Below, piece by piece: positions 16,993 to 63,335 of a DNA stretch of 64,000 bases (position 1 is the stretch's first letter; each line of letters starts with the position of its first letter). A program made the translations under genes and the position numbers. The stretch is from a phage: sequence record OZ413489.1. One strand, given 5' to 3'. The notes under the pieces are model-generated. The model was not told where the DNA came from and ran no database searches. It saw only the letters and a program-made list of their open reading frames with translations.

Positions 16993-17048
16993 GGCGTTAC
17001 AACGGCATACGGGGCGCTTAAAAAATTTTTAAAGAAGTACTTGCATCA

Positions 17049-17530
17049 TTCCCGACAATATGGATAATAAGAGTTGTCGAGGGGGAGGCCCCCAATCGTT
17101 GACCAGATAGATAGGAGTTAAAATCATGGCTATTGTTACCGCTGGCTATCTTCAAAGATGCGGAAGCAAAACAACGCCGGATCTCAATACATGAGATCAT
17201 CAACCTTAACGCTGGAGGCACACCATACCGCCCAGGACCTGGCCGTGAGATGGACAATACGCTAGCGATCCTGAAGATACGCCGTAAACGGTCCTCCCTT
17301 ACTCTGGACTCATTACACACAATGCAGCCTCCGTTCCAGGTGACCGGGAAACGGATCGCCAGGTCCTGGACAAAGGCCAATGATCGGACCGTATAAATAA
17401 AAGTGTTTTGGTACTGATTTTGGGGTTGACTTGTTCGGCCCCTTTTGCTATTCTTATTAAACGGGCGGCACTTGGGAACAGGGGGAGACAATCACCGGGC
17501 CTGCCTGTCATATAAGAACTATAAAAACCG
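17049..17530 (+). other. promoter-driven GC-rich leader region: candidate 22-aa leader ORF or structured RNA
   Basis: ttgcat-16-gataat promoter at 17049-17076; 22-aa ORF at 17126 with aggag RBS; both long ORFs here look non-protein-like. Confidence 0.35.
17486..17508. repeat. 23-nt inverted-repeat arm, right
   Basis: ggagacaatcaccgggcctgcc is the reverse complement of 10045-10067. Confidence 0.75.
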
Positions 17531-17559
17531 TTGACATCTGCCATGGGGTGGGGTAACAT
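17531..17559 (+). promoter_or_regulatory. sigma70-like promoter (ttgaca-17-taacat)
   Basis: Hexamers upstream of 17614 gene. Confidence 0.5.
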
Positions 17560-17613
17560 TTATCTTGAAGGGGCAAAAGTGCCCACACAACAACCAAGAG
17601 AGAGGAAAACACT

Positions 17614-17886
17614 ATGTCAAACTGGATTAATCAAGAAGTCGAATCACGTTTTAATGCTATTTGGGATCTCATCGAAAAAGAAGACGGCACATCAAGCCCC
17701 TACCTCAACAATTTGGAATTCCATTTTGTGGAAGCGATGAACGCAGAACATGATCACGAAGGTGGCGCGGATGAGTTCGCTAAAGGTTATGGCTTTAACA
17801 ATGCCAACGAAATGATCGAGGCGGTAGTACTCCAGGCTGAGGAAGATTATCAACTAAAAACGCTTGAATTCTGCCGCCGCAAGTAA
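17614..17886 (+). CDS. hypothetical protein
   Basis: 90-aa ORF, RBS agagagga. Confidence 0.6.
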   Translation: MSNWINQEVESRFNAIWDLIEKEDGTSSPYLNNLEFHFVEAMNAEHDHEGGADEFAKGYGFNNANEMIEAVVLQAEEDYQLKTLEFCRRK

Positions 17887-17946
17887 TAAGATAATGACAC
17901 GGGCCAAAAGGCCCACTAATCAGAACCGCACAAAGAGGTAAACATC

Positions 17947-18210
17947 ATGAAACGTCTTGATCAGCTCAAATTAGTTCAATATATGGCTTATCGTGTTCTT
18001 GAAGTCCAGAAAGGTAGCAAAAAAGAGGTTTGCGAGAAAGCTTATAAGATCTTCACTCGCAAAAAAGATGACTGGATGCTACGCCAGACTAAAAAGGCTG
18101 ACATCTTGGGGTACCTGGAAGAAGAGATCCGCCTTGAAGAGCAAGAAGAGATCCGCCGTAGTGAGGCAGATTATCAGGCAGCTTGGGAAAACTGGATGAG
18201 CAACAAATAA
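17947..18210 (+). CDS. hypothetical protein
   Basis: 87-aa ORF, RBS aagaggtaaa. Confidence 0.6.
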   Translation: MKRLDQLKLVQYMAYRVLEVQKGSKKEVCEKAYKIFTRKKDDWMLRQTKKADILGYLEEEIRLEEQEEIRRSEADYQAAWENWMSNK

Positions 18211-18228
18211 TACAACAAGGTGCACGGT

Positions 18229-18256
18229 CAGGGGCTTAAAGCCCCTTTCTTTTTGT
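18229..18256 (+). terminator. intrinsic terminator closing the + strand block
   Basis: aggggc-ttaaa-gcccct followed by ttctttttg. Confidence 0.65.
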
Positions 18257-18859
18257 CTCCTCTTTTCCTACCACAAATGGCCCCGCCTGGCAAATGGAAT
18301 AATCAACAAGCCAGCAATTAACCCCACTGTACAAACATACATATAAAATAACTATTGCATAATTTTTCATTGTGTGGTAGCAGTGCCATTTTTACACGTT
18401 TTTCCTTCCAAAATTGCACGTAATGCAGCATTTGCACAAAATTTAACCTGATGCATATCTTCAATAGCTTGTCAACAACTAAAAATCTTTATAAGTCATA
18501 CACTTACATAACTACAAAAACGTTTTCTACGTGAAAAATCGAGTATAACTATAGCCGCCAGATCTCAGAATTTACGTACGCTCGCCATTCTATAGCCTGC
18601 TAAGCATTTATTCCAACCATAGAATAACGGAATAGTCAATACCTGCATAAAATAATTATTCGTGTAAACTGCATAACATAAATCGGCCCAGGTGTCAACA
18701 TTTTTCGTAAACAGTCTGGAATTGTCACGTTAGGTTACCATAAGCAGAGAAATCTTTAGTCGTCTAATGTTTACTGTACATTACTATACTGACTGGAATC
18801 ATTAGATGACTAAGAGAAAGATAAGAAATAATTAATAATGTAATTATTTTACCTGTAAC

Positions 18860-19125
18860 AATAAGGCAACTATGCAAACGAATGGCATGGCGCGACGGAG
18901 TCGCGACATAATATAAAAGCAGTAACCATCACCCCCGTGATAGTTTGTCTGCAAACTATTAATCAGATCATAGTTGCCTTGTATTTAGTTAATCATGACA
19001 TGACAAGCAAGGCAACTATAGATCTGCTAATAGTTGCCCTGCTTTTATATTATGTCATGCTAATTATAATCAGTGCGATTATTGTCATGTATAATTATTG
19101 TCATGCAAACGAATGGCATGGCTGA
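18860..19125. repeat. array of aaggcaactat motifs in both orientations plus duplicated gcaaacgaatggcatggc
   Basis: Copies near 18863, 18970 (inverted), 19009, 19031 (inverted variant); 18-mer at 18874 and 19106; cgcgac-ggag-tcgcg palindrome. Confidence 0.6.
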
Positions 19126-19132
19126 TTATCGG

Positions 19133-19230
19133 TGTGTAAACAGTCAATCATGTAAATGGTTAGCATGTGAACAATCAGGAATGTAAACAATCCAGTGTGT
19201 AAACTAATAGGTGTGTAAAAGTGTCATGTT
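19133..19230. repeat. iteron-like array of six tgtaaac-type direct repeats
   Basis: gtgtgtaaacag, atgtaaatgg, atgtgaacaa, aatgtaaacaa, gtgtgtaaact, gtgtgtaaaag at 10-20 bp spacing. Confidence 0.55.
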
Positions 19231-19364
19231 GTGTCAGTTAGGTCACATTATGTCAGACAAGTTTTTCTCCTCTTTGTCAAGTGCTGCATGAAAAATTTAC
19301 AAGCTTGTATGGTAGCATTTTTGCGGCCCTGTTTACATTCAGTAATGTATGTATAATCCTTGTT

Positions 19365-19527
19365 GTGTGGGCGTTTAGACGTCTAGACGGTTGGAAGTCC
19401 ACAGGTCAATATCTAATCTATCGGCTGCTAACTATATCCCACACATGTGTGGGCGTTTAGACGTCTAGACGGTTGGAAGTCCACAGGTCAATATCTAATC
19501 TATCGGCTGCTAACTATATCCCACACA
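19365..19527 (+). repeat. perfect tandem duplication of an 81-bp unit (82-bp period)
   Basis: Unit gtgtgggcg...tagacgtcta...cccacaca twice; 7-bp terminal inverted repeat gtgtggg/cccacac; tataat hexamer at 19351-19356. Confidence 0.8.
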
Positions 19528-19789
19528 AATAGTAAGAAATATGATTGTTATATGCGTAAACTGTAACTCATGTTATCAATCCCTGTATGGATCGCCAGTG
19601 GTGCGCATAATAGGTATTATGTTAAATTGCCCGTAATGATAACAGTTCTCACAATGATAGGTATTCTCATTCATCCACACAAAATAGGTTGCAAATGTTG
19701 TGCCACTGTGTGAACGGCCTGGCCTATTAATTTCTCTCACTGCCTCGATATTTGAGAATTGTTATAAGAATGAGAAGTATTCCCATTCC

Positions 19790-20130
19790 GTCCGCCTGGC
19801 AGCACTCCTGTAGGTCCTGCAAGGACTCTAGCTGAAAGCTAGACCCTTCGGGCCTCCCTGTAGGTCAGGTCAAAATCGTGGTAGAATTGGGCCTGTTCAG
19901 ATATTTCTGGCTGACTCTTCAGGTCTGTGTGGGAAAAGCCAACCTCTCCGGCGGGGCAGGGGGTCATGACGGGAAAATTGCAGGTCAATTAAAAAATTTA
20001 CGTGGTGTATGAAGCGCTCTTCAGGTAAGGCATGTATTATGGGATGAAACCCTCTTCAGGCAATGATATTTGTGGGTGTGATATTTGCTGGAAAGCCAGA
20101 TATGACGGGACTCCCGGCGGGGATGGGGTA
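19790..20130. repeat. GC-rich segment with recurring short motifs
   Basis: ctcttcagg x3 (plus one at 20465), ccggcgggg x2, cctgtaggtc x2, atgacggg x2. Confidence 0.55.
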
Positions 20131-20823
20131 GTACAGACAGGGAAAATATGAGAATGTAGTTGGGGAAATTGATCAGACAGGTAGAGTATGGAATATGTTA
20201 CAAGTATGTTAAATATGGAGGTTGAATATCTGTAGGATTTGTGTGTAAAATCAAAGACTTAAGGGGTGTTGTGGTATTTTCTATAAATAATTCAAGTTTA
20301 ATAGGCAATATTTGTCTCTATCCGCTTTGTGTGGTAAACAGATTCAGATTAGATTGGTTTACAAGTGTATACATAATATACAAATTAAAGATACAAGAAA
20401 CCCCCCTCCCCCTTCGGCTACCATTCACCTTTTCCTCTGACTGGTACTTAAACACTTATTCAGACTCTTCAGGTTATCACCCATATATCATATGGCAGTG
20501 ACTGGTGTCCTCCGGCCCCTCTTTCGTCACCCGTCCGCTTCGCCATGCTAATGCCATAGCCAATGGTTCGGTTGTTCACTCTGTTCACTCAGGTGTATCT
20601 CCATACCCCTTCAAACCGAAGAGAACAGAAAACCCGAATTACTCGGTAAAAGAAAAGAGAAGAACTTAATTTTATCAGGATAGGCAAGAATGTCAAGGCA
20701 TGACTGCTCACTAAACAAGCAAACAGTCATGTGTGGAAGGTAAGTGATTGTGGTGGTGGGAAATTTAGTTGAAAGATGTGTTATAGGTGCTCCCAGCACT
20801 TTAGCCGGGTAGCTAATTGTGTG

Positions 20824-21039
20824 TCAGTCCAGTGGTTCATCACCTACTTCACTGAAATCAATGTTCATGGTCTCCTCCCAACCATCAATCTCAGCACCAG
20901 AGTAGAGATCTTTAGGACTTACTCCCAAAGCATCAGCAACAGAGTCCATATTTAACACCTCTGGCAGGTATGATTCATCGAATTCAAGGTAAATCAGGCC
21001 ACGAGTGTTGTCAGCTCCACCAAATATTTCTATCTTCAT
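20824..21039 (-). CDS. hypothetical acidic protein
   Basis: Start at MKIEIF after aggag RBS; last gene of minus block. Confidence 0.5.
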   Translation of the reverse strand: MKIEIFGGADNTRGLIYLEFDESYLPEVLNMDSVADALGVSPKDLYSGAEIDGWEETMNIDFSEVGDEPLD

Positions 21040-21159
21040 GAAATCTCCTCTGGGAATGAGAGTGTGAACAGGGTTTATACGTTCCAATGCGCTGGAATTA
21101 TGCACGTTTGCCTCTTCAGGCCATGCTTCAGCATGAGGAACCTGTGTGGGCTCGGTGCT

Positions 21160-21372
21160 TCATAGTCTACCACCCCTGAACTCTTCGTGCTCAGGCATAA
21201 TAGAGAACCAGATATCTACGATGTCTTCCCACGTCAGGTCATCAGCCTCAGGATCTACCTGGAGCGAAGATGAAGAATCTTCAGAATCGAAGTTTTCCTC
21301 TTGCACTGGCTCAGTCAAGGGACATATAGTCACTCCTTTGGATGTCTCTTCAGATGCATGTGTGTTTATCAT
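21160..21372 (-). CDS. hypothetical acidic protein
   Basis: 70-aa ORF; start overlaps stop of upstream small ORF. Confidence 0.35.
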   Translation of the reverse strand: MINTHASEETSKGVTICPLTEPVQEENFDSEDSSSSLQVDPEADDLTWEDIVDIWFSIMPEHEEFRGGRL

Positions 21373-21470
21373 GTTCCACCCGTGAGTATTCCGGCAACAG
21401 CTGCTATGGACGTAATGATCATCAGGATCACCACTAAAACTTCGGACAATGTTCTCATTGTGTACTCCAT
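21369..21470 (-). CDS. small membrane peptide (33 aa)
   Basis: Hydrophobic LVVILMIITSIAAVAGIL; ATGA coupling to next gene; no clear RBS. Confidence 0.25.
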   Translation of the reverse strand: MEYTMRTLSEVLVVILMIITSIAAVAGILTGGT

Positions 21471-21732
21471 ATTCTACAAACTATGTGTGGATACTATCAC
21501 TGGATCGGTAATGTGTCAACAGAAACGCCGCGAGGGTTTGGTTAAAATCCGAGCGTATGGTGATTTGGGTCAAAACGGACGTGCGTTCTCGCTACGCTCG
21601 AAATATGGAGTTGTTTGTAGGGAGCTCTTAAACGCTCTGTAATGAAATTAACTACCCAAGGTATGCAATCGTGCACCAGACAAAGAAAAGGACGCCACAG
21701 AGCGTCCTAGGTGTCTTAAATTTGATATTTTG

Positions 21733-22044
21733 CTATACCCACGAGGGCTTATCAAGGTTGGAGTAGCTGAAAGGTGTCAAAAGGTGACTGTCAAAATCTC
21801 TCAAACTATCCAAATCTTTTTCCTCGTCCTGACACCATCTGTGCCTACATTTGTTGTTGTAGTGCATGGAATGCATAGCGTTCTGCAACTTAACAGGCAC
21901 AAGTGATTCAGGAGTAGATAGTATTGTTGGGTATGCCAGAACCACCTCAAACAGTGGAAACACATCGAAACTAAAGTCTACCTCTGCAGAGGTTGATGGC
22001 ATATAGGAGTATTTAGCCGCCTTTGTAGACATAATCCACCTCAC
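21733..22044 (-). CDS. hypothetical protein
   Basis: 103-aa ORF. Confidence 0.55.
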   Translation of the reverse strand: MRWIMSTKAAKYSYMPSTSAEVDFSFDVFPLFEVVLAYPTILSTPESLVPVKLQNAMHSMHYNNKCRHRWCQDEEKDLDSLRDFDSHLLTPFSYSNLDKPSWV

Positions 22045-22373
22045 ACAGGTTTGATAATACCTTCACCGAATAGCTCTTCGTATCTAATCTTGTCCGGATC
22101 CCACTCCTGTATAATTTCGAAGACAATATCCAACCCAGGAACAATCACTTCTCCAGTGTCAAGCTTAGCAAGAACAAAACCGGAAGGTTGAATGGTTTCC
22201 CAGTTACGGCGATCAGAATAAAATACTTCGAAAATATCACCAACCTCAATCCGTTTCTGTTGCTCAAGATGCTGAAGGTTCTCTTTCATACGGATGCAGC
22301 GTATTTTTCGTGCAGGCCATAGACCACCTGCATCACGTTCATTCAATTCTTTTACAGTGATCGGTATACCCAT
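22041..22373 (-). CDS. hypothetical protein
   Basis: 110-aa ORF. Confidence 0.6.
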   Translation of the reverse strand: MGIPITVKELNERDAGGLWPARKIRCIRMKENLQHLEQQKRIEVGDIFEVFYSDRRNWETIQPSGFVLAKLDTGEVIVPGLDIVFEIIQEWDPDKIRYEELFGEGIIKPV

Positions 22374-22428
22374 CTCAAGTCTCCTTCATGGATAGTAAAA
22401 AGAGGGGCCTAAGCCCCCCTCTTTGTCA

Positions 22429-22734
22429 TTATTCTACAGAGCGTTTGAACAGAATGTCTGCCTCAGACATGTGCTCAACCTCTTCTTCGATTTTAGCTCG
22501 ACGTTTTTCAGCCTCATATCGAATATCGAACTCGGTAGCCACCAGAGATTTGATGAATTTAGGAGAATACAGATGATCCTGCTTCTCAACAAGAATGATA
22601 TCCTTGATGGCATCTTTCAAATCTTTAATCTGAAGCTGGAGTTCCACCAGTTCTTCAATTGTTTTGCGAAGGCGATCACGTTCTGCAGTGTCAGAAGGAA
22701 GAGAGGTGAACAGTTCAACTTTAGATTTAGCCAT
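22429..22734 (-). CDS. coiled-coil hypothetical protein
   Basis: 101-aa ORF, charged heptad-like sequence. Confidence 0.6.
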   Translation of the reverse strand: MAKSKVELFTSLPSDTAERDRLRKTIEELVELQLQIKDLKDAIKDIILVEKQDHLYSPKFIKSLVATEFDIRYEAEKRRAKIEEEVEHMSEADILFKRSVE

Positions 22735-22762
22735 AGTAAGAGTCTCCTTATGTTGTTTTAAA

Positions 22763-23014
22763 TTAACGTTCTACAAAAATACCGTTCAGTTCAATAACCA
22801 GGAATTTCTGGTCTTCACTATCGTCTCGTGCCAGCACCTCACAGACGTATCGGTCATCCCCATCATCATCGCAGTCAAATACAAGACTGAGGACTTTATC
22901 ATGGTAAACCTTCGCCACTACCGCCTCGTAAGTATTGCCGATTGTGAATCCAAGATAATCTCCGATGCATTTGACAACAACATGGTCTCCAGCATTTAAG
23001 TCAATCTTCGTCAT
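22763..23014 (-). CDS. hypothetical protein
   Basis: Start at MTKIDL after aaggag RBS; track ORF extended to 23080. Confidence 0.55.
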   Translation of the reverse strand: MTKIDLNAGDHVVVKCIGDYLGFTIGNTYEAVVAKVYHDKVLSLVFDCDDDGDDRYVCEVLARDDSEDQKFLVIELNGIFVER

Positions 23015-59878: not shown

Positions 59879-60229
59879 ATGAAAGATGGGGATAAGCTGC
59901 TATATCTTAAAGTCCCCCTTGAAATACTGTCTATGTCAAAAGTTTTGAATGACACAACTGGAGAGGTTGTTGTTCTTGACTTGTATGACAAGATCGTATA
60001 CTGCTACCTGCACAACTGGTATAAGCTTGGAGGAAATTCACGCTTCACACCCAGCACAAGGAAAATTGCAGCAGATGTTGGGATAAAGAAAACAAAAGCA
60101 GCAGCGTGCGTTAAAACTTTAGAGTGTGCAGGGGTGGTTGAAACATCCACACAAGGGAGAGGTAAAAGATGCACATTTTCCAAAGTTTTGCCACCAGAAG
60201 AAGTTATTCGGATGTCAACAACTGGTTAG
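59879..60229 (+). CDS. winged-helix DNA-binding protein (replication-organizer or repressor-like)
   Basis: PSTRKIAADVGIKKTKAAACVKTLECAGVVE resembles HTH of phage replication initiators; operator array immediately downstream. Confidence 0.5.
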   Translation: MKDGDKLLYLKVPLEILSMSKVLNDTTGEVVVLDLYDKIVYCYLHNWYKLGGNSRFTPSTRKIAADVGIKKTKAAACVKTLECAGVVETSTQGRGKRCTFSKVLPPEEVIRMSTTG

Positions 60230-62039: not shown

Positions 62040-62300
62040 TTTATCTCTGGATGCTTTGAAACAGGGTTCGGAGAAGACTGAGTTCCCCTTAGAGGGCTTG
62101 ATAGTGCACCACACTTAAAATGGTAGGGGCAGCCAGCACATGACGATGTGACCCCAGCCAACCTGTAACAAGGTCGAGCCGAAGCGCGGGTAATAGGCCT
62201 CTGGTAACCCACTTGTTGGGTCTTGCTGGCCCAGGACGCTGGACAAGTCGCAGGGAATACCACCCTGCGGCGAACTTGACAATCAGTATTTGCTATGATA
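62040..62300 (+). other. GC-rich island; candidate structured RNA or leader
   Basis: Composition shift; stem-loops; in-frame extension upstream of ATG 62333 looks non-coding. Confidence 0.3.
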
Positions 62301-62332
62301 AAATCCACCTATCACGTGATAATGGAGGAAAC

Positions 62333-62671
62333 ATGGCGGATACAACTAAAAAGCGTCGCCGTAGAGGCAGACCTCTGAAAGAGGAGTCCAACGCCATTCA
62401 GCTAGAGAAGAACATCCTTGATATGAAGGAATCTTTTATAGCGATGGTTCCAGAAGCTCACAAAGTTTTAAGAGAGCTGATGTTGGACCCGAAAACCAAA
62501 CAAAATATTCGTCAAAGCATTGCAGAGTATGTTCTTGATAAGGCAGACCGAATGCAGGAAGAATATGATGAGATGTTTGGTGAAGAGGAAGAGGTGGTAG
62601 TGGAAGAGGCTGAAAAACCAGCACCTTTTATGCCATTTACTACAGAAATACAGCCTGTTAGCAATAGCTAA
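62333..62671 (+). CDS. AT-hook-like basic/acidic DNA-binding protein
   Basis: N-terminal KKRRRRGRPLKE (RGRP AT-hook core) and acidic C-terminus; RBS ggagga. Confidence 0.55.
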   Translation: MADTTKKRRRRGRPLKEESNAIQLEKNILDMKESFIAMVPEAHKVLRELMLDPKTKQNIRQSIAEYVLDKADRMQEEYDEMFGEEEEVVVEEAEKPAPFMPFTTEIQPVSNS

Positions 62672-63236: not shown

Positions 63237-63335
63237 GCTAGGTAAGCCCTTTGGCAAGGGCGAGGATTTTTAATCCTGAAAATAGACGAGGTAGTCGTTG
63301 AATACATAGGTGGTTCGATTCCATCACCTAGCACC
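63237..63335 (+). tRNA. tRNA-like gene with aberrant anticodon arm
   Basis: Acceptor gctaggt/acctagc, D-arm and T-arm fold; anticodon region is either a 5-nt loop or a 4-bp stem with loop tttttaa; 3' end is CC then T. Confidence 0.35.

Follow-up and report, generated by a model that had tools for sequence, protein, structure and literature searches.

The 64,000-nucleotide stretch of phage DNA considered here (sequence record OZ413489.1, one strand, 5′ to 3′; this whole stretch is called the window) comes from an rV5-like coliphage of the genus Vequintavirus: more than 100 Vequintavirus genomes match it, mostly with 90–99% identity. Between positions 18863 and 19255 it holds a cluster of short direct and inverted repeats, which directly abuts one edge of the predicted direct terminal repeat (DTR) of the phage. 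Because of this placement, the cluster is read as a cis-acting region for the processing of genome termini or concatemers and for DNA packaging, of the type known from phage T7 and its SRL and SRR regions; the probability of this reading is put at about one half. The support for it is positional and comparative, and consists of the location at the edge, the rarity of the edge 9-mer ATTATGTCA and the occurrence of flank motifs in other genera.

The cluster lies inside a 2.6-kb gap free of open reading frames (ORFs), in which two gene blocks converge. The plus-strand genes stop at 18210 and the minus-strand genes near 20.8 kb, and the GC content across 18300–19300 is 32–37%, compared with about 44% in the flanking genes. 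In the rV5 genome paper the corresponding stretch was marked merely as 'non-coding', and the origin of replication could not be placed. An earlier, sequence-only reading of the window described a bidirectional motif array followed by six iterons, and took it for a protein-binding platform such as an initiator or terminase small-subunit site. All the elements it described are present. The cluster is composed of three modules rather than one array, namely a GC box with an inverted-repeat (IR) block, a series of YGTRAAY units and a series of TGTCA repeats. The 18-nt IR, the AACTAT-N10-ATAGTT palindromes, the TGTCA repeats at 19221–19255 and the genome terminus abutting the cluster were not part of that reading.

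Repeats adjoining the genome terminus

The virion DNA of the subfamily Vequintavirinae carries exact DTRs of 458–519 bp. Two papers on Vequintavirus describe terminal redundancies of 458 bp in EdH4 and HdK5 and a DTR of 459 bp in Gotham. The Gotham record opens with the annotated repeat, of which position 1 corresponds to window position 19796 and position 459 to window position 19256. The same two places bound several other records: those of the bov10K2 series, ECP2309, YN3 and HdK5 begin or end exactly at 19796, and those of Pr121LW, ECP2303 and OX460980 at 19256. By homology, the DTR of the window phage is predicted to span 19256–19796. It contains an 82-bp tandem duplication that is extra in comparison with the relatives, and would thus be 541 bp long instead of 459 bp (Table 1).

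The repeats of the cluster run up to this predicted cut. The TGTCA series terminates at the cut site ATTATGTCA/G (19255/19256, where the slash marks the cut here and below; the next bases are GACAAG), and the TGTCA repeats reach the DTR edge in every relative compared. The six YGTRAAY units are located 36–121 bp from the same edge, and the two series together fall within 125 bp of it. For estimates of specificity, Gotham 1–95 kb and window 19797–64000 were combined into a genome-wide set of about 137 kb in total. This set contains two exact copies of ATTATGTCA, one at the DTR edge and one in the right IR arm, where the copy at 19049–19057 overlaps the 3′ end of the arm by one base. Repeated short sites adjoin the predicted cleavage position, as they do at terminase sites of the cosB or pac type.

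The TGTAAAC-type units, described in the sequence-only reading as six direct repeats, are indeed six, all on the plus strand. They start at 19135, 19151, 19166, 19182, 19198 and 19214, with spacings of 16, 15, 16, 16 and 16 bp. Three of them are exact TGTAAAC, and the remaining ones read TGTAAAT, TGTGAAC and TGTAAAA. The conserved part of each unit of about 16 bp is a 7–10-bp core, YGTRAAY(WRT), and the spacers are free. A stretch of 64 nt contains five YGTRAAY matches, compared with a background rate of 0.66 per kb per strand, and the densest 100-nt segments of the specificity set hold five matches in the array and at most two elsewhere. The 9-mer GTAAACWGT has three copies in the window (18707, 19136 and 19556), all on the plus strand and all in the terminus region. 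Tandem Repeats Finder calls a period-16 array in rV5, but misses the six units of the window because their spacers are too divergent; its only call in the window is the 82-bp duplication. The TGTCA and iteron series were compared by eye with Pho boxes and IHF sites, and both readings were rejected, since the spacing or the consensus fits too poorly for a claim. A promoter scan found 11 sigma-70-like sites against 9.0 expected, which is not an enrichment, and none of them fits the array.

The left module is built around the motif AAGGCAACTAT, for which at least four copies in both orientations had been claimed. It is exact at 18863 (+), 18970 (−) and 19009 (+), and present with one mismatch at 19030 (−). 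When up to one mismatch is allowed, the window contains nine matches compared with 1.6 expected, and no shuffled sequence got to nine. The orientation pattern of copies 2–4 results from two AACTAT-N10-ATAGTT palindromes and not from a loose bidirectional array. Three of the four copies are enclosed by the IR block, and the fourth is just upstream. The GC palindrome is found as described (Table 1). The duplicated 18-mer is part of a real 20-mer duplication, ATGCAAACGAATGGCATGGC (18872 and 19103; zero copies expected by chance), but rather than being interleaved with the motif, its two copies flank the GC box and IR module. Motifs at similar density elsewhere in the genome would have spoken against the special character of the array; over the roughly 137 kb, no similar clustering was found, and all four occurrences of RGGCAACTAT as well as both occurrences of the 18-mer lie within the array. 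When viral contigs were scanned for exact copies of the 18-mer, only three close relatives were retrieved.

As single-stranded DNA, the region 18850–19125 folds strongly (−58 kcal/mol, z = −8.7), and its structure may be given a different meaning. The left module could act in transcription termination or regulation between the convergent gene blocks, with the AAGGCAACTAT inverted repeats as terminator stems and the palindromes as operators. The hairpin at 19005–19044 (−25.3 kcal/mol, z = −4.6), whose stem is the operator-like palindrome 2, is followed by TTTTATATT and was annotated as a terminator by two groups, in Alma and in Murica; on the minus strand, the hairpin at 18945–18924 is followed by CTGCTTTTAT. 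Bidirectional terminators between genes 163 and 164 were also expected in the rV5 paper. However, the last plus-strand gene is already closed by a strong terminator at 18230–18246, the U-tracts are weak and interrupted, and in other genera the IR is conserved yet has no T-run at its arms. On the linear virion DNA, moreover, the gene blocks point to the free ends and never meet. Termination also leaves the six direct repeats and the TGTCA series unaccounted for, and an Rfam scan of 17000–23000 at E ≤ 1 gave zero matches. A role of the cluster primarily in transcription is thus considered rather improbable.

Table 1. Sequence features of the terminus region, in window coordinates
Feature	Position	Strand	Remarks
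AAGGCAACTAT copy 1	18863..18873	+	Overlaps the start of 20-mer copy 1; in 16 of 16 relatives examined, FV3 included
20-mer direct repeat copy 1, ATGCAAACGAATGGCATGGC	18872..18891	+	Directly 5′ of the GC box
GC box/hairpin	18890..18907		Stem 18891–18896 / 18900–18905; CGCGAC-GGA-GTCGCG at 18891–18905
Perfect 18-nt IR, left arm, GACATAATATAAAAGCAG	18905..18922
Small GC hairpin, ACCATCACCCCCGTGATAGTT	18924..18945	−	Terminator-like on the minus strand
Palindrome ATAGTTTG-TCTG-CAAACTAT	18940..18959		Counterparts on the same flank in KPP-1 and the putative PVP-SE1 contig
Operator-like palindrome 1, AACTAT-N10-ATAGTT	18953..18976		Holds AAGGCAACTAT copy 2 (18970–18980, −)
Operator-like palindrome 2, CAACTAT-N10-ATAGTTG	19013..19036		Holds AAGGCAACTAT copies 3 (19009–19019, +) and 4 (19030–19040, −)
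Perfect 18-nt IR, right arm, CTGCTTTTATATTATGTC	19039..19056
Two ATTATTGTCATG units, TGTCA family	19079..19106	+
20-mer direct repeat copy 2, ATGCAAACGAATGGCATGGC	19103..19122	+
Six YGTRAAY(WRT) units	19133..19220	+	15–16-bp spacing
TGTCA-type repeats	19221..19255	+	Starts 19222, 19232, 19241 (GGTCA), 19251; 9–10-bp spacing
DTR equivalent (predicted by homology)	19256..19796		459 bp in relatives, 541 bp here; edges GACAAGTTTTTC... and ...CCGTCCGCC
Perfect 82-bp tandem duplication inside the DTR	19364..19527	+	Single-copy in all listed relatives
Iteron-core copy inside the DTR, GTAAACTGT	19556..19564	+	9-mer thrice in the window: 18707, 19136, 19556
28-nt block, GGTGCGCATAATAGGTATTATGTTAAAT	19600..19627	+	Unique in the window
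Other DTR flank	19797..19867		TGGCAGCACTCC conserved, then variable small duplications and insertions

Conservation and turnover in related phages

Sixteen close relatives were aligned, and coverage was checked separately across 120 records. Fifteen of the 16 have the left block, the 20-mers and the IR, and AAGGCAACTAT copy 1 and 20-mer copy 1 are found in all 16; FV3 alone is without the block bounded by the 20-mers, and it is also the only one of the 120 records with a matching drop in coverage. In FV3 (JQ031132), a clean 231-bp deletion between the 20-mers has removed the GC box, the IR and AAGGCAACTAT copies 2–4, all of which are retained in SYGMH1, a phage of the same species. The missing block may reflect a natural deletion by recombination or a collapsed assembly. 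The opposite reading, in which the 231 bp are a mobile insertion with target duplication, was rejected because other genera share the order of elements: a lineage-specific direct-repeat copy stands directly 5′ of the GC box, and the IR comes afterwards. Given this shared order, FV3 is more likely to have undergone a deletion by recombination between the repeats.

The number of YGTRAAY units ranges roughly from 4 to 12 among related Vequintavirus genomes, and both DTR flanks are hot spots of small insertions and duplications. Comparison of A147, SYGMH1, V18 and rV5 shows several places in the array where a small GC-hairpin insert, for example ...GGCATAGCC... or GAAACACCCGAAGGGGTG, exists in some phages and is missing from others; the inserts may be tiny mobile or slippage-derived elements. 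The GTTGG repeats of A5-4 were considered as variant iterons and rejected, since alignment puts them inside the putative A5-4 DTR, where they are not equivalent to the units. The other flank of the DTR has two copies of CCTGTAGGTC (19807 and 19857), one on either side of a 40-nt GC-hairpin insert, and relatives have duplicated GGCAGCACTCC modules there instead; GTAAAC-like sites are only scattered there (20241–20363).

Further into this flank, a near-consensus sigma-70 promoter (TTGACA-16-TAAAAT with TG) is situated on the minus strand, from 20696 to 20669, directly followed by a terminator-like hairpin at 20646–20634. The GC skew of the plus strand over 19900–20400 is up to +0.57, and the C-run box CCCCCCTCCCCC (20401–20413) recurs on the same flank in A5-4, in locus L030, in the putative PVP-SE1 contig and in KPP-1. 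The region 20634–20696 or 19900–20413 may encode a small RNA.

The most widely shared element is the 28-nt block within the DTR. Viral contigs were scanned with the pattern GGTGCGYATAAnnnGTATTATGTTAAAT, which has three free positions and one Y, and exact matches were obtained in divergent genera, the flanks of which do not allow an alignment. The labels of two of these contigs, PVP-SE1 (Salmonella phage) and Av-05 (Escherichia phage), are unconfirmed. Klebsiella phage KPP-1 has a near-copy, in which TTTTAT replaces TATTAT; the exact and near matches together concern loci L020, L023–L030 and L031. A sigma-70 promoter reading of the 28-mer was rejected because there is no conserved −35 element and because of this KPP-1 substitution; an rrn-P1-like reading on the minus strand was also rejected, as it holds in the window and L024 only. 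An unbiased 6-mer scan of the terminus regions of seven lineages placed ATTATG and TTATGT first, at 5–6 times the background, and GTCAAG and ATAGTT were enriched as well.

Two of the divergent phages give further access to the ends. The record of Erwinia phage Hena1, which matches the 28-mer, annotates DTRs, and an exact repeat of 519 bp forms both of its ends. This repeat starts with AACACTTTTCTATCTTCCTGTCAAG and ends with ...TTGTCCGTC, compared with GACAAGTTTTTCTCCTCTTTGTCAAG and ...TTCCGTCCGCC in the window, and the ends are homologous. For KPP-1 (Mydovirus), a DTR of 514 bp at 116,316–116,829, of the 'T7 type', was determined from coverage and PhageTerm. The published coordinates land exactly at GGTGCTA/GACGGAC and, as the reverse complement, GTATTGCTA/AACACAAT; the measured edges are the motifs that had been predicted beforehand from homology. 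On the array side, the edge reads TGTCA/GAC in the window, TGCTA/AAC in KPP-1 and in Hena1, and TGTTA/AAC in the putative Av-05 contig, and the reverse complement of the other edge reads TGCCA/GGC, TGCTA/GAC, TGTTA/GAC and GGTTA/GAC, respectively. Both DTR edges thus carry TGYYA/RRC, one inverted relative to the other. This is the pattern expected if one nuclease nicked opposite strands at both edges, although the agreement is suggestive only.

The left module recurs outside the genus in its layout more than in its letters. In six lineages of the subfamily, a GC box, with the sequence GGCGCGAC..G.GCGAC kept, is followed by a perfect IR with arms of 16–22 nt, the partner arm being 61–204 nt away. 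The arms vary by lineage (GACACTATAACACGAGAG, GACACAATAACGCAGTAG, GACCAATAGAAAACAGGTA and AGCCACCTATAAACGCTGATAG are examples), and their complementarity stays perfect. Since the arms differ and nevertheless match their partners exactly, the symmetry must be maintained, by selection or by arm-to-arm conversion. On the same flank, other genera have single copies of the palindrome ATAGTTAC-N5-GTAACTAT and of the composite GTAAACTGTCA(AG). GTAAACWGT is also found in the terminus regions of the putative PVP-SE1 contig, L023 and Hena1, and the KPP-1 flank has a single copy, GTAAACTGTCAAG. With single sites in other genera, the Vequintavirus arrays look like amplified older single sites.

The variability of the DTR flanks allows the repeats to be regarded as the product of largely non-functional turnover, in DNA that is prone to slippage, insertion and recombination because it is adjacent to an end. 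The hot spots on both flanks, the variable unit number, the GC-hairpin inserts that come and go and the FV3 deletion between the 20-mers would all be expected from it, as would the duplicated GGCAGCACTCC and CCTGTAGGTC modules of the other flank and the 82-bp duplication unique to the window phage. Neutral turnover does not explain why the repeat cores are kept while the spacers drift, or why the left block, the 20-mers and the IR persist in nearly all aligned relatives. Six divergent lineages have the same layout with compensatory changes, and the motif cores recur at the same place in other genera. Turnover without function is accordingly thought to have little chance of being the full account.

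Several observations were made next to these comparisons. Beside the gap, at 17947–18210, is an 87-aa gene that several records call 'DNA translocase FtsK', without Pfam support; homologues with 42% identity occur in some Salmonella siphovirus records, at their ends. Between this gene and the array, rV5, Murica, YP-6, V18 and others have a 420-nt ORF (rV5 ORF164), which is lacking in the window, FV3, slur16 and JeffSchatz (window 18236–18700 against 292–711 of the rV5 locus L008). At 63237–63335, ARAGORN reports a 99-nt tRNA with a four-base anticodon, of which the Gotham equivalent is a 97-nt tRNA-Lys; the tRNA may be unusual or intron-containing. About 18 GenBank records of the series MG0656xx, named 'Campylobacter phage' and flagged UNVERIFIED, are 93–98% identical to E. 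coli rV5-like phages in this region, and are probably mislabelled or contaminant genomes.

Comparison with known termini and origins

The function of SRL and SRR of T7 is, to our knowledge, not settled. In the T7 sequence, the terminal repeat at 1–160 is followed at once, from position 175, by CCTAAAG heptamers with a 13-bp spacing, and further CCTAAAG copies are present inside the repeat and on its other flank. The likeness to the window phage lies in a short exact DTR, a non-coding region and extra core copies inside the repeat. Both phages also have a one-orientation array with a 7-nt core within tens of base pairs of the edge, here the YGTRAAY units from 36 bp outside. For T7, hairpin intermediates were described during infection and proposed to prime the duplication of the repeat, together with RNA polymerase pausing at the concatemer junction. 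The window phage differs in being a myovirus of about 137 kb without a phage RNA polymerase, so that a T7 polymerase pause signal is inapplicable here. Its large perfect IR, GC box and operator-like palindromes have no obvious T7 equivalent.

Other comparisons concern the positioning of terminase. The R-sites of lambda cosB and the hexamer clusters of P1 pac are short repeats that are thought to position terminase. They resemble the present cluster in having several short repeated sites within about 200 bp of cleavage, on one or both sides. The difference is that cos and pac phages produce cohesive ends or headful series and not exact DTRs, and there is no sequence similarity.

The repeats also resemble iteron origins, such as lambda ori and plasmid oriV, and the nic and bind loci of rolling-circle replication, with which they share one-orientation repeats, an AT-rich segment and a hairpin-forming IR. 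The region may accordingly be taken for a replication origin, in which a phage initiator would use the YGTRAAY units as iterons and the AT-rich IR block or the 28-mer would be the unwinding or priming element. The origin would then happen to adjoin the genome end, in the manner of the secondary origins of T7, where the promoters phiOL and phiOR play this part and adjoin SRL and SRR. The regular spacing of the repeats beside DNA of 32–37% GC fits an origin, and so does the invariance of the 28-mer across genera. A further point in its favour comes from L024 and L028, IMG/VR contigs of 261,806 and 43,922 bp from uncultured phage unrelated to the window. They contain three copies of the 28-mer core in 135 nt, about 1.3–3.6 kb from the contig ends (around 1050–1450 in L024), and this triplet is flanked by seven DnaA boxes, four of them perfect TGTGGATAA, in an origin-like layout. 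Megablast gave no match for these contigs, the phage collection contained no relative, and the one protein match was a weak one to a cyanophage.

In the terminus region of the window, by comparison, only one DnaA box (8/9, at 19671) was found, and no Vequintavirinae locus has a cluster of them. No initiator gene is located beside or around the repeats, and none of the neighbouring ORFs has a Rep or HTH domain in Pfam. The two ORFs that the sequence-only reading had named as candidate binders did not gain support, as nothing above threshold was found in Pfam for them either: 59879–60229 has sub-threshold matches only (HTH_36 with 24.5 bits at a cutoff of 25, borderline and so far in favour of an initiator, and DUF6945 with 27.4 at a cutoff of 28), and 62333–62671, which is part of a 152-aa ORF at 62213–62671, has none. 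The short core of 7–10 bp and the about three-fold variation of copy number between near-identical phages are unusual for origin iterons. Nor would an origin explain the exact extension of the repeats to the cut site, or the sequence that they have in common with it. Finally, the skew analysis in the rV5 genome paper revealed only shifts tied to the direction of transcription. An origin thus appears unlikely as the main function of the cluster. Within the protein-binding platform proposed earlier, the terminase or packaging option has gained positional and comparative support, and the initiator option has become weaker.

A different role at the same place would be the control of DNA entry, if the cluster, at a leading end, acted as a pause or stop signal for stepwise ejection or as a binding site for a host factor. 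This possibility, drawn from analogy, is regarded as very remote. The injection stop region of T5 is rich in repeats and palindromes, and the present cluster is likewise rich in direct and inverted repeats and lies within 0.5–0.9 kb of one virion end. The TGTCA series of relatives, with its 10–11-bp spacing, loosely resembles tandem response-regulator sites, and the DnaA boxes near the 28-mer in L024 might be host-factor sites, but no host-factor consensus was matched convincingly.

Certain findings weigh against the packaging and processing reading itself. The two DTR flanks carry different repeats, with CCTGTAGGTC and CTCTTCAGG in 19797–20300, whereas the flanks of T7 match. The six-unit array is specific to the genus, and the corresponding sites in other genera are single copies; V18 seemingly has no YGTRAAY units at all, in a record that is short and has a suspicious T12 run at the junction. 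Variation between 4 and 12 units is also what neutral slippage near a genome end would produce. The edge motif TGYYA/RRC is short and of low information, and the lineages that share it are not independent, which is why its inverted arrangement is no more than suggestive. If the FV3 assembly is right, the IR module is dispensable in culture. The DnaA boxes around the 28-mer in L024 and L028, in turn, hint that a part of the region serves replication.

A predicted terminus module and its implications

On the packaging and processing reading, the repeats may be assigned the following roles. A terminase or an accessory specificity factor would load on the YGTRAAY and TGTCA sites, which could be amplified copies of an older composite site, GTAAACWGTCA, and would be positioned by them to nick after ATTATGTCA. 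The same nuclease would nick the opposite strand at the other DTR edge, and strand-displacement synthesis could then duplicate the repeat, as in the classic scheme for T7-type ends. A more speculative step concerns the IR (18905–19056). If the bottom strand were nicked where the left arm carries the edge motif, the 3′ end might snap back into a hairpin and prime synthesis that would proceed rightward across the DTR. A dimeric accessory protein probably binds the AACTAT palindromes within the IR. The state of FV3 argues that a hairpin-primed step would not be essential.

Extended to the subfamily, the comparison suggests, as a tentative proposal that is possible rather than probable, that the Vequintavirinae share one cis-acting 'terminus module' of five components. 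These would be the invariant 28-nt core of the DTR, the inverted nick-site edges TGYYA/RRC (ATTATGTCA/G here), the GC box, the nick-site-bearing IR whose snap-back would prime DTR duplication, and the genus-specific amplified sites for terminase loading, represented in the window by the six YGTRAAY units. The DTR has already been published, whereas no description of the arrays, the conserved IR with the GC box, the 28-mer or the inverted edge motif was found in the literature searched.

Phages of the rV5 type are often isolated and serve in typing sets and therapy cocktails, and the formation of exact short DTRs is still modelled almost wholly on T7. The placement at the edge and the layout shared across genera provide concrete sites for tests of terminase recognition and DTR duplication. 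For annotation, they offer a rule for opening Vequintavirinae genomes, at the edges ...TGYYA/RAC... and ...GTCCGYC/T.... Should the region prove sufficient for packaging in cis, plasmids could be made packageable and these phages engineered more cleanly. If the terminus module is true, short-DTR myoviruses would have their first defined signal for packaging and processing.

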